NCBI GenBank assembly: GCA_041389105.1
Contig: JAWKSO010000002.1
Span: forward strand, 18,336 to 82,335
DNA: 64,000 nucleotides
Direction: 5' to 3'
Source: Minisyncoccota bacterium
GTDB lineage: Bacteria; Patescibacteriota; Minisyncoccia; Phycocordibacterales; CSBR16-119
Positions 26,681 through 26,886 of the stretch are shown here, piece by piece. The stretch's first letter is position 1, and each line of letters begins with the position of its first letter. Below the pieces are notes generated by a model. It made no database searches, was not told the DNA's origin, and was given only the letters and a program-made list of their open reading frames with translations. A program made the position numbers and the translations under genes.

Positions 26681-26706
26681 AAAAACCAAGACAAGCTTGG
26701 TTTTTT
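26681..26706 (-). terminator. rho-independent terminator (displaced original tRNA-Asp terminator?)
   Basis: CCAAG-CTTGT-CTTGG with A6/T7 flanks, directly after the distal copy of the tRNA-Asp 3' end. Confidence 0.55.
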
Positions 26707-26886
26707 GTATTTGCGCGAACGACGGGAGTTTCACTGCTCGCTACGCTCCGCTTTCAAAACCCACGGTTTTGAATAATTTCCAACAAGGGGAAACAGATGT
26801 TTCCCCGACCCCCTTCTTGTTCAAGTCCCATCTATACATATTAAATACAAAACAACACGGACGATATCCGTGTTGTTTTGTATTTG
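26703..26886 (-). repeat. tRNA-3'-end-associated structured insert, copy D (family 2)
   Basis: A 25-nt perfect direct repeat (26703-26727 = 26876-26900) covers the tRNA-Asp 3' end plus 10 nt of flank. GTTCAAGTCCC at 26819-26829 is an inverted copy of the T-arm. The insert has a GAAGGGGGTCGGGGAAAC core and its own terminator at 26847-26881. Confidence 0.65.

Follow-up and report, generated by a model that had tools for sequence, protein, structure and literature searches.

The window analysed here is a 64,000-nt stretch of contig JAWKSO010000002.1 (assembly GCA_041389105.1, Minisyncoccota bacterium), and all coordinates are positions in it. On its minus strand, on which the unit described below is read, a tRNA-Asp gene is followed by a hairpin, an antisense copy of part of the T-arm of the tRNA (X), a core of about 90-100 nt, and a second, distal copy of the tRNA 3' end with its own terminator (Table 1). 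A preliminary description had taken this arrangement for a second type of insert, delimited on both sides by the tRNA 3' end and sharing its architecture, with a different core, with an insert (copy A) behind the gene of tRNA-fMet. Both statements held in our comparison with related loci and contigs, which are labelled with L-numbers (L001, L005 and so on). The unit after tRNA-Asp belongs to what we call the B-type, apparently an undescribed family of folded elements in the tRNA 3' trailers of Paceibacteria-like Patescibacteria, and copy A is a member of a second family (A-type) of the same design.

Table 1. Positions of the tRNA-Asp unit, of copy A and of a degenerate copy in the window
Feature	Position	Strand	Basis or remark
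tRNA-Asp(GUC), complete, without encoded CCA	26886-26960	minus	ARAGORN; Rfam RF00005, 67.9 bits
Proximal 25-nt repeat copy (T-loop U60, T-stem 3' strand, acceptor 3' strand, discriminator, 11 nt of trailer)	26876-26900	minus	
Perfect 19-bp hairpin directly 3' of tRNA-Asp	26843-26861/26867-26885	minus	terminator-like, weak U-tract
Whole B-type element	26707-26837	minus	covariance model R1, 139.6 bits
X, antisense copy of tRNA-Asp T-loop and T-stem 3' strand, GAUGGGACUUGAAC	26819-26832	minus	5' strand of closing helix P1
Family-invariant single-stranded motif GAAGGGGGUC (DNA GAAGGGGGTC)	26807-26816	minus	invariant alignment columns
Hairpin H1, GGGGAAAC-AUCU-GUUUCCCC (DNA GGGGAAACATCTGTTTCCCC)	26787-26806	minus	covaries across copies
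Hairpin H2, UUCAAAACC-GUG-GGUUUUGAA (DNA TTCAAAACC-GTG-GGTTTTGAA)	26753-26773	minus	covaries across copies
Family-invariant 3' motif AGCGGAGCGUAGCGAGCAGUGAAAC	26728-26752	minus	stretch first taken for a tRNA 5' end
Distal 25-nt repeat copy, 3' module of the element, UCCCGUCGUUCGCGCAAAUACAAAA	26703-26727	minus	exact repeat of 26900-26876
Intrinsic terminator after distal repeat copy	26680-26706	minus	called by terminator scan
tRNA-fMet	27324-27395	plus	
Terminator after tRNA-fMet	27400-27432		
Copy A, A-type element after tRNA-fMet	27433-27604	plus	
Copy A, P0	27451-27472	plus	
Copy A, X	27475-27487	plus	
Copy A, P2	27487-27524	plus	
Copy A, P3	27525-27585	plus	
Copy A, 3' module	27585-27604	plus	
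Degenerate B-like copy	17784-17906	plus	R1, 32 bits; directly 3' of tRNA-Gln(CUG)-like gene 17700-17770

Sequence comparison confirmed the 25-nt perfect repeat of the tRNA-Asp 3' end that had been noted before; by chance, 2.7 kb would contain about 3e-9 pairs of this kind. The copies enclose about 115-148 nt without an open reading frame (ORF). The structure directly after the tRNA had been called a terminator: the hairpin is real and has a near-identical counterpart in L005, but it has no clean U-tract and a simple terminator scan gave no call for it. The same scan did call the terminator behind the distal copy, which, like the core and the sequences of H1 and H2, was present as described. 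The inverted T-arm, separated from the 19-bp hairpin by a spacer of 10 nt, proved to be family-wide and longer than first noted: GAUGGGACUUGAAC is reverse-complementary to GUUCAAGUCCCGUC of the tRNA itself, and 13 of its 14 nt are complementary to 26894-26907, the sole mismatch being a G.U (chance expectation, about 0.004). X pairs with UCCCGUC of the distal repeat copy, of which the acceptor 3' strand, discriminator and trailer form a tail, and its T-loop-complementary part pairs with the end (GUGAAA) of AGCGGAGCGUAGCGAGCAGUGAAAC through a tandem G.A.

The unit is not an assembly artefact or a chance repeat. The window is near-identical to contig JAWKSN010000001.1 of GCA_041389125.1, where the unit recurs (L001; 97.7 bits with covariance model R1, built from nine B-type copies) despite many small indels between the two, and it recurs in the independent JGI metagenome contig L005 (91.7 kb; 145 bits). 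These occurrences refute the objection that the repeat is an assembly duplication. That a noisy long-read assembly collapsed or duplicated a repeat, as those indels and the fragmented genes might suggest, is practically negligible as an explanation, because the unit stands in three independent assemblies, including the unrelated JGI contig, and family members occur in many other datasets. Homologues of the 186-amino-acid (aa) protein encoded beside the unit bear Paceibacteria, Nomurabacteria or Yonathbacteria names.

Families of tRNA-matched elements

Seven metagenome loci matched an exact, gapped pattern derived from the core (GGGGGTCGGGG N46-76 GCGAGCAGTGAAA); in six of these a tRNA gene on the same strand precedes the match by 14-140 nt (Ala, Glu, Leu, Gly, Asp and Tyr). 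A search with R1 detected 11 B-type copies plus one truncated copy, adding one after tRNA-Thr (L052), the truncated one after tRNA-Ser (L067) and the degenerate copy in the window, whose X (TGCTGGACTAGAA, 17788-17800) and 3' piece (GTCCAGCAAC, 17886-17895) both match the odd Gln-like gene before it. This gene has an aberrant T-arm, is reported by ARAGORN as 'tRNA-???' and falls below the Rfam gathering threshold. The copy in L073 is an orphan without an adjoining tRNA.

The B-type element measures about 115-130 nt and has three parts: X, a core in which two covarying hairpins are combined with single-stranded motifs that are invariant, and the 3' part of the tRNA in sense orientation. It has no acceptor 5' strand. 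Every copy has, ahead of an invariant GGGGGUCGGGG, some 15 nt that are reverse-complementary to the T-loop and the T-stem 3' strand of the local tRNA. An invariant GCGAGCAGUGAAA is followed, again in every copy, by a repeat of the local tRNA that starts at the end of the T-loop and reaches at least the discriminator. The core stays constant, with X and the 3' piece differing between copies so as to match tRNAs for Asp, Ala, Glu, Leu, Gly, Tyr and Thr. The likeness of GCGGAGCGTAGC to the 5' end of tRNA-Asp, on which the preliminary description had remarked, is coincidental: GCG(G/C)AGCG-N-AGCGAGCAGTGAAA is invariant beside Ala, Glu, Leu, Gly, Tyr and Thr tRNAs, despite their differing 5' ends, so that the stretch is not derived from tRNA-Asp. 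The mini tRNA-like piece proposed there was not borne out either, because neither ARAGORN nor the Rfam tRNA model (RF00005) found a tRNA gene or pseudogene inside 26703-26885.

These data also bear on the possibility that the unit is a decaying tandem duplicate of tRNA-Asp and its terminator, of which only the 3' end is left. A 64-nt repeat of 73% identity does span both hairpin regions of the unit, and partial duplicates of tRNA 5' ends occur upstream of tRNA genes in these genomes. However, the interior is not tRNA-derived, its motifs being invariant beside seven other tRNA identities, the T-arm copy is inverted rather than direct, and the unit is 94-97% conserved between genomes whose genes are only about 73-83% identical. 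The family alignment contradicts a tandem duplicate, which we regard as highly improbable.

Comparison of the copies indicates that the B-type is a conserved structured element, with compensatory changes beyond those of the controls. RNAalifold predicted, from the B-type alignment, a closing helix P1 (X with GUGAAA and the T-stem copy, including the tandem G.A) and the hairpins H1 and H2. In the model-based alignment of the 11 copies, standard pairs occupy 92% of the cells, and 18 pairs are changed on both sides, compared with 6.6 +/- 1.8 in shuffled alignments (none of 500 shuffles reached 18) and 4-10 in slid controls. The covariation of outer P1 is partly a by-product, because both of its strands follow the tRNA; H1 and H2 are independent of this, and in H2 (helix 3) both-side changes were found in seven of the nine pairs. 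About 45 positions are invariant in the family. The constant co-orientation with the tRNA and the terminator that follows favour the tRNA-sense strand as the one that would be folded.

X fits the adjacent tRNA better than its own pairing partner in the element in all ten copies compared. The Watson-Crick matches to the tRNA amount to 15 of 16 for Tyr, 14 of 16 for Leu and for the Asp copy of L005, and 13 of 16 for the window copy, and X tracks T-loop variants of its tRNA even at the cost of mismatches in P1. These observations suggest that X is either templated from the tRNA (or its gene) or selected to pair with it. A wider count among 164 Patescibacteria tRNAs gave a downstream copy of the last 13 nt of the tRNA in 26 cases and an exact 11-mer of the antisense T-arm downstream in 11; neither was found upstream (0 in both counts). 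The distance between tRNA and X is as short as 14 nt in L069, and no promoter was predicted between the first hairpin and X.

The fit of X to the tRNA raises the possibility of a cis-acting trailer device, in which X would, in the nascent precursor, pair with the upstream T-arm and the 3' piece would compete for X, tuning the folding, 3' maturation or turnover of the tRNA. The predicted minimum free energy (MFE) structure of the full precursor pairs X with the T-arm of the tRNA around the hairpin, leaving a symmetric internal loop in which about 9 nt of the acceptor strand face about 10 nt of spacer, and the better match of X to the tRNA than to its own partner holds in all copies. Nevertheless, a conserved core of about 90-100 nt would be superfluous for such a role, many orthologous tRNAs lack the element, and the orphan copy of L073 has no tRNA to act upon. 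We therefore consider a cis-acting device improbable.

The A-type family comprises 21 aligned copies after fMet, Met, Thr and Asp tRNAs. Copy A itself has a direct repeat (27377-27396 = 27585-27604) and is also present, 99.7% identical, in ENA contig L002. The order of parts in the family is P0, X ending in ..GAA(A/C), P2, an invariant GAG, P3, and GUGACC (or GGG..A) joined to T-loop C56; RNAalifold supported P1 (X:X'), P2 and P3, with compensatory changes in 15 of 18 pairs. The A-type also provides the acceptor 3' strand with a pairing 5' strand (GAGUCAUUG:UAAUGGCUC, 9 bp, for Thr; GCGCGA:UCGCGC, 6 bp, for Asp), so that it resembles the skeleton of a tRNA. By eye, the A- and B-type cores have the short motifs GGGGUCG, GAAAGC..AGCG, GCGAGC and GUGA in common; R1 did not detect the A-type copies, and common descent of the two cores is conjectural.

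A third type of cassette lies after tRNA-Asp in L006 (6487-6660) and L055. It consists of a hairpin, X (CGGGACUUGAAAACC), two hairpins and UUCAAGUCCUAGCAAUCGCGC; its design is that of the A- and B-types and its core is different.

On the 5' side of the initiator tRNA, a conserved leader (27232-27283, plus strand) lies between a promoter (27165-27192) and the gene; it is also found in L002, L005, L006, L009, L010 (as two tandem units) and L046. The leader contains a copy of the tRNA-fMet 5' end and D-arm, followed by UAUAGUGCGAAUAACC-UGA-GGUUAUG, and has no Rfam match. A similar 5'-end copy lies upstream of tRNA-Asp in L009 (6222-6290). The fMet leader may be a 5'-side counterpart of the trailer elements. 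Initiator tRNA, promoter and leader are inverted as a block in the window, L001, L002 and L005 relative to L006 (tRNA at 5719-5790), L009 (5831-5902) and L010 (5947-6018), and the 186-aa gene has two inverted paralogues in L002, one on each side of the initiator tRNA.

Occupancy of tRNA loci and possible explanations

A scan for the 3' end of this tRNA-Asp, with one genome per species, gave 56 loci, and occupancy was counted at Patescibacteria loci with enough downstream sequence. Elements were present at 13 of 29 tRNA-Asp genes, the remainder having only a terminator before the next gene, and at 6 of 86 other tRNAs in the same loci. In close relatives the gene order (gatCA, the 186-aa gene, tRNAs, prfB-ftsEX-pyrG) is kept, and the site after tRNA-Asp is occupied by the B-type in L005, the A-type in L009 and the third type in L006, as in L055; a bare terminator follows tRNA-Asp in L013, L021, L022, L038, L050 and L060. 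Comparison of orthologous clusters, which had been proposed as a check, thus revealed both empty tRNA-Asp sites and repeat-bounded polymorphism, suggesting a swappable cassette bounded by repeats. L005 lacks copy A after tRNA-fMet and has A-type elements after tRNA-Met and tRNA-Thr, both of which are absent from the window.

Between the window and L005, the 3' half of tRNA-Asp, the first hairpin and the core are 94% identical, compared with 73-83% for the flanking genes, and only three differences in about 100 nt were found from X to GUGAAA; the distal terminators of the two are unrelated. Judging from their sequences, the copies look young. The start of the repeat is fixed in the T-loop, whereas its length ranges from 16 to about 60 nt; with about 55-60 nt, the repeats of L046 (tRNA-Met) and L026 (tRNA-Asp) reach across the terminator hairpin, a further sign of young copies. 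The repeat had been called a target duplication: the repeat as such is real, and with this range of lengths a duplication in the transposon sense is uncertain. Because it pairs with X, the repeat is, in addition, a structural part of the element. In L072, L032 (tRNA-Thr) and L064 the distal copy has CCA where the tRNA gene has CAA or CAC. The tail is lost in L062 and L025.

Since the repeat runs from the T-loop to the 3' end of the tRNA, which Williams, in 2002, is said to have described as the classical sublocation of tRNA attachment (att) sites, and the tRNA is rebuilt, the unit could be the relic of an island or prophage inserted by a tyrosine integrase into the tRNA-Asp 3' end, or a cis-mobilisable remnant flanked by att sites. 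The family data contradict such a relic: the interior of about 115-148 nt has no coding remnant, the same core of covarying hairpins recurs beside more than nine tRNA identities, X and the 3' piece fit the local tRNA anew in each copy, no integrase was found in the scanned ORFs of the window, and the B-type pattern was absent from IMG/VR, which was searched for a phage origin. We find this explanation hardly credible.

As the best explanation, we propose that the element is a selfish structured cassette, without a protein of its own, whose homing target is the cognate tRNA gene, a proposal that we judge about equally likely to prove right or wrong. Apparently lacking a promoter of its own, the element would be produced either as a segment of the tRNA precursor or when the first hairpin is read through. 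The homology from the T-loop to the 3' end would give it entry, whether through recombination or through templated copying, leaving an intact tRNA on one side and a second 3'-end copy on the other; X would be the guide-like determinant of specificity, and the conserved core would be recognised by a machinery acting in trans. Recombination between the two repeat copies would remove the element.

A more daring version, which we hold only tentatively, is programmable homing without a protein gene, in which the RNA or single-stranded DNA of the cassette would use X and the sense 3' segment as a two-part guide. The guide would find the T-loop region of one specific tRNA gene, insertion there would rebuild the tRNA, and the enzyme would be encoded by the host or elsewhere. 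Exchange of about 15 + 16 nt would then rewrite the specificity. An alternative to it, of the same novelty, would be a set of antisense or mimic RNAs, each specific for one tRNA, which it would monitor or regulate.

Several observations weigh against a homing cassette. The variants of X stay within tRNA-specific lineages (e.g. the bulged GGGAUCUUGAAC in many A-type copies at tRNA-Asp), suggesting inheritance within these lineages and no frequent retargeting. As to the ancestral one of the two repeat copies, the Asp locus and the fMet locus give contradictory answers: the distal terminator of the Asp unit is shared with L009 (a 21-nt stem-loop, CCAAGCTTGTCTTGGTTTTTT, common to both although the cassette of L009 is of A-type), and the proximal terminator at fMet resembles that of the empty site of L005. 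No excised or circular form and no pair of empty and filled sites within a population was observed. Integrase, transposase and reverse transcriptase (RT) were absent among the 27 window ORFs scanned with Pfam, which encode housekeeping proteins (such as SecA, RNase J, BipA, RecG, FtsH and type IV pilus proteins); four ORFs of at least 170 aa (33967-36162, 39154-39822, 42006-42623 and 55757-56383) lie outside the scan. The genes beside other B-type copies look like ordinary chromosomal ones (e.g. ClpB-, DnaX- and DnaB-like), as judged from N-terminal sequences outside the Pfam scan, and the fetched loci contained neither long versions bearing ORFs nor repeat copies more than about 520 nt from the tRNA start. 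As to the fold, the single-sequence MFE structure of the window copy lacks P1, so that the fold rests on comparative evidence, and the counts of G.U (about 8) and A.C (about 5) cells do not settle the folded strand. Finally, the strong conservation of the fold and of unpaired motifs fits a host-useful RNA equally well.

Such an RNA is the main alternative to homing, one that we consider possible, though less likely than not: the core would be a functional non-coding RNA (ncRNA) expressed from tRNA trailers, and the tRNA-derived modules would be handles for excision from the precursor by RNase P, RNase Z or the CCA-adding enzyme, or for contact with the cognate tRNA or its enzymes. Besides the covarying helices and the approximately 45 invariant positions, a mimic RNA would be consistent with the acceptor-like stem that the A-type 5' strand stacks on P1, with the CCA of several distal copies, with the co-orientation with the tRNA and lack of an own promoter, and with L032, one complete genome in which all three tRNAs of an 8-kb locus carry a copy. 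However, the patchy occupancy at tRNA-Asp and other loci, the replacement of one type by another at one locus, and the decayed and orphan copies argue against it. So do the lack of an acceptor 5' strand in the B-type, the copying of the neighbour's exact sequence instead of a generic acceptor, and the pursuit of T-loop variants by X even where P1 is mismatched.

On either account, the small genomes of Patescibacteria would gain a new kind of element, a conserved folded scaffold whose two short modules, antisense and sense, are exchangeable and always fit the neighbouring tRNA. Should these modules direct insertion, they would constitute a natural, re-targetable addressing of tRNA genes without an element-encoded protein; if they serve an RNA, a new form of tRNA mimicry or tRNA-specific RNA. 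The element accounts for the many 'tRNA fragments' and duplicated 3' ends of tRNAs that occur in these genomes, and annotation of such fragments as att sites, pseudogenes or assembly errors is unwarranted. The covariance models obtained can be used across all genomes.

Some further features of the window and its relatives were noted. Positions 21000-34000, compared with L001 and L003, are 96-98% identical to GCA_041389125.1, with more than 170 gap openings per 12.7 kb, which lie in patches, and the fragmented genes differ (gatA, ligA and GT2 in the window; pyrG and tRNA-Asp in L001); this fragmentation looks like long-read indel noise, not true pseudogenes. An alternative genetic code, considered as the reason for the short ORFs, received no clear support; what appears on comparison with L001 is indel noise. 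A gene resembling tRNA-Ser, with anticodon ACU (47444-47530, minus strand), called by ARAGORN only, has an anticodon arm that can alternatively form a 7-bp stem with a 3-nt loop, and may be a pseudogene or an unusual tRNA.

Comparison with known systems

The element fits no known family among those tested, and a full-text literature search found no published description of it. At the Rfam 15 gathering thresholds, only tRNAs and tmRNA passed in the window; at E<=10 in 26500-27800 no family was found inside the element, the sub-threshold hits being hairpin noise, and at E<=0.1 in L005 (5500-7800) the element had no match. No Rfam match to hammerhead, twister, HDV or other ribozymes was obtained.

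tRNA-integrated islands and prophages with tyrosine-integrase attL/attR, and their derivatives without an integrase (CIMEs), resemble the element in their use of the tRNA gene 3' end, in a direct repeat that starts in the T-loop and covers the 3' end, in the intact tRNA that is kept, and in presence/absence polymorphism among relatives. Unlike them, the element has a gene-less interior of about 115-148 nt that is folded like an RNA with compensatory changes, an antisense T-arm copy, one core for many tRNA identities and a repeat of variable length, and no integrase was found in the scanned ORFs.

Elements with guide RNAs (IS110 bridge RNA and IS1111 seekRNA; IS200/IS605 omega RNA or reRNA) likewise combine a structured non-coding module of constant scaffold with short segments, complementary or identical to the target, that vary from copy to copy. 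In contrast to these, no recombinase, TnpB or IscB gene was found in or near the element. An omega-RNA/PATE or bridge RNA was rejected as a candidate, no Rfam family matching inside the element (bridge RNAs are perhaps not in Rfam) and no TnpB, IscB or DEDD domain occurring in the scanned ORFs; the IS605-orfB and HEARO models were presumably included in the Rfam copy used. Guide-RNA elements leave duplications of 0-2 bp, whereas the element has a target copy of 16-60 nt, alongside which the intact target persists. A retron ncRNA was rejected as well: a closing stem is present, but the scanned window ORFs include no RT.

The internal guide sequence (IGS) of group I introns and trans-splicing ribozymes offers another parallel, with an antisense guide spanning the target junction, a structured core and a sense 3' part of the target. 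Unlike a group I intron, the element has a core of only about 90-100 nt and no G.U at the putative splice site, and it sits after a complete tRNA, not within one. RF00028 did not match the element; as a positive control, a genuine group I intron in tRNA-Asp of L005 scored 59.5 bits. In L005 (6839-7158 and 6234-6905), this intron interrupts the anticodon loop and has a free-standing LAGLIDADG ORF immediately upstream; the window tRNA-Asp, unlike that of L005, is uninterrupted. An apparently homologous ORF, with a similar start of the coding sequence, follows the tRNA-Met element in L046.

tRNA-like domains (tmRNA, YrlA, mascRNA) and tRNA-punctuated processing share acceptor and T-arm features with the element, some copies of which encode CCA, and the A-type adds an acceptor-like stem stacked on a T-stem-like helix. 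The element differs in that its core replaces the T-loop, in that the B-type has no acceptor 5' strand, and in the absence of an Rfam tRNA, tmRNA or YrlA match; it mimics one specific neighbouring tRNA.

Miniature inverted-repeat transposable elements (MITEs) and short interspersed nuclear elements (SINEs), like the element, are short, multi-copy, protein-less and patchily distributed, with degenerate copies, and SINEs are also linked to tRNAs. A MITE or another repeat derived from an insertion sequence was rejected, the inverted arms X/X' changing with the tRNA and the repeat having no fixed length. Instead of fixed terminal inverted repeats and a fixed-length target duplication, the element has ends matched to its target, and it is confined to tRNA trailers in one orientation.

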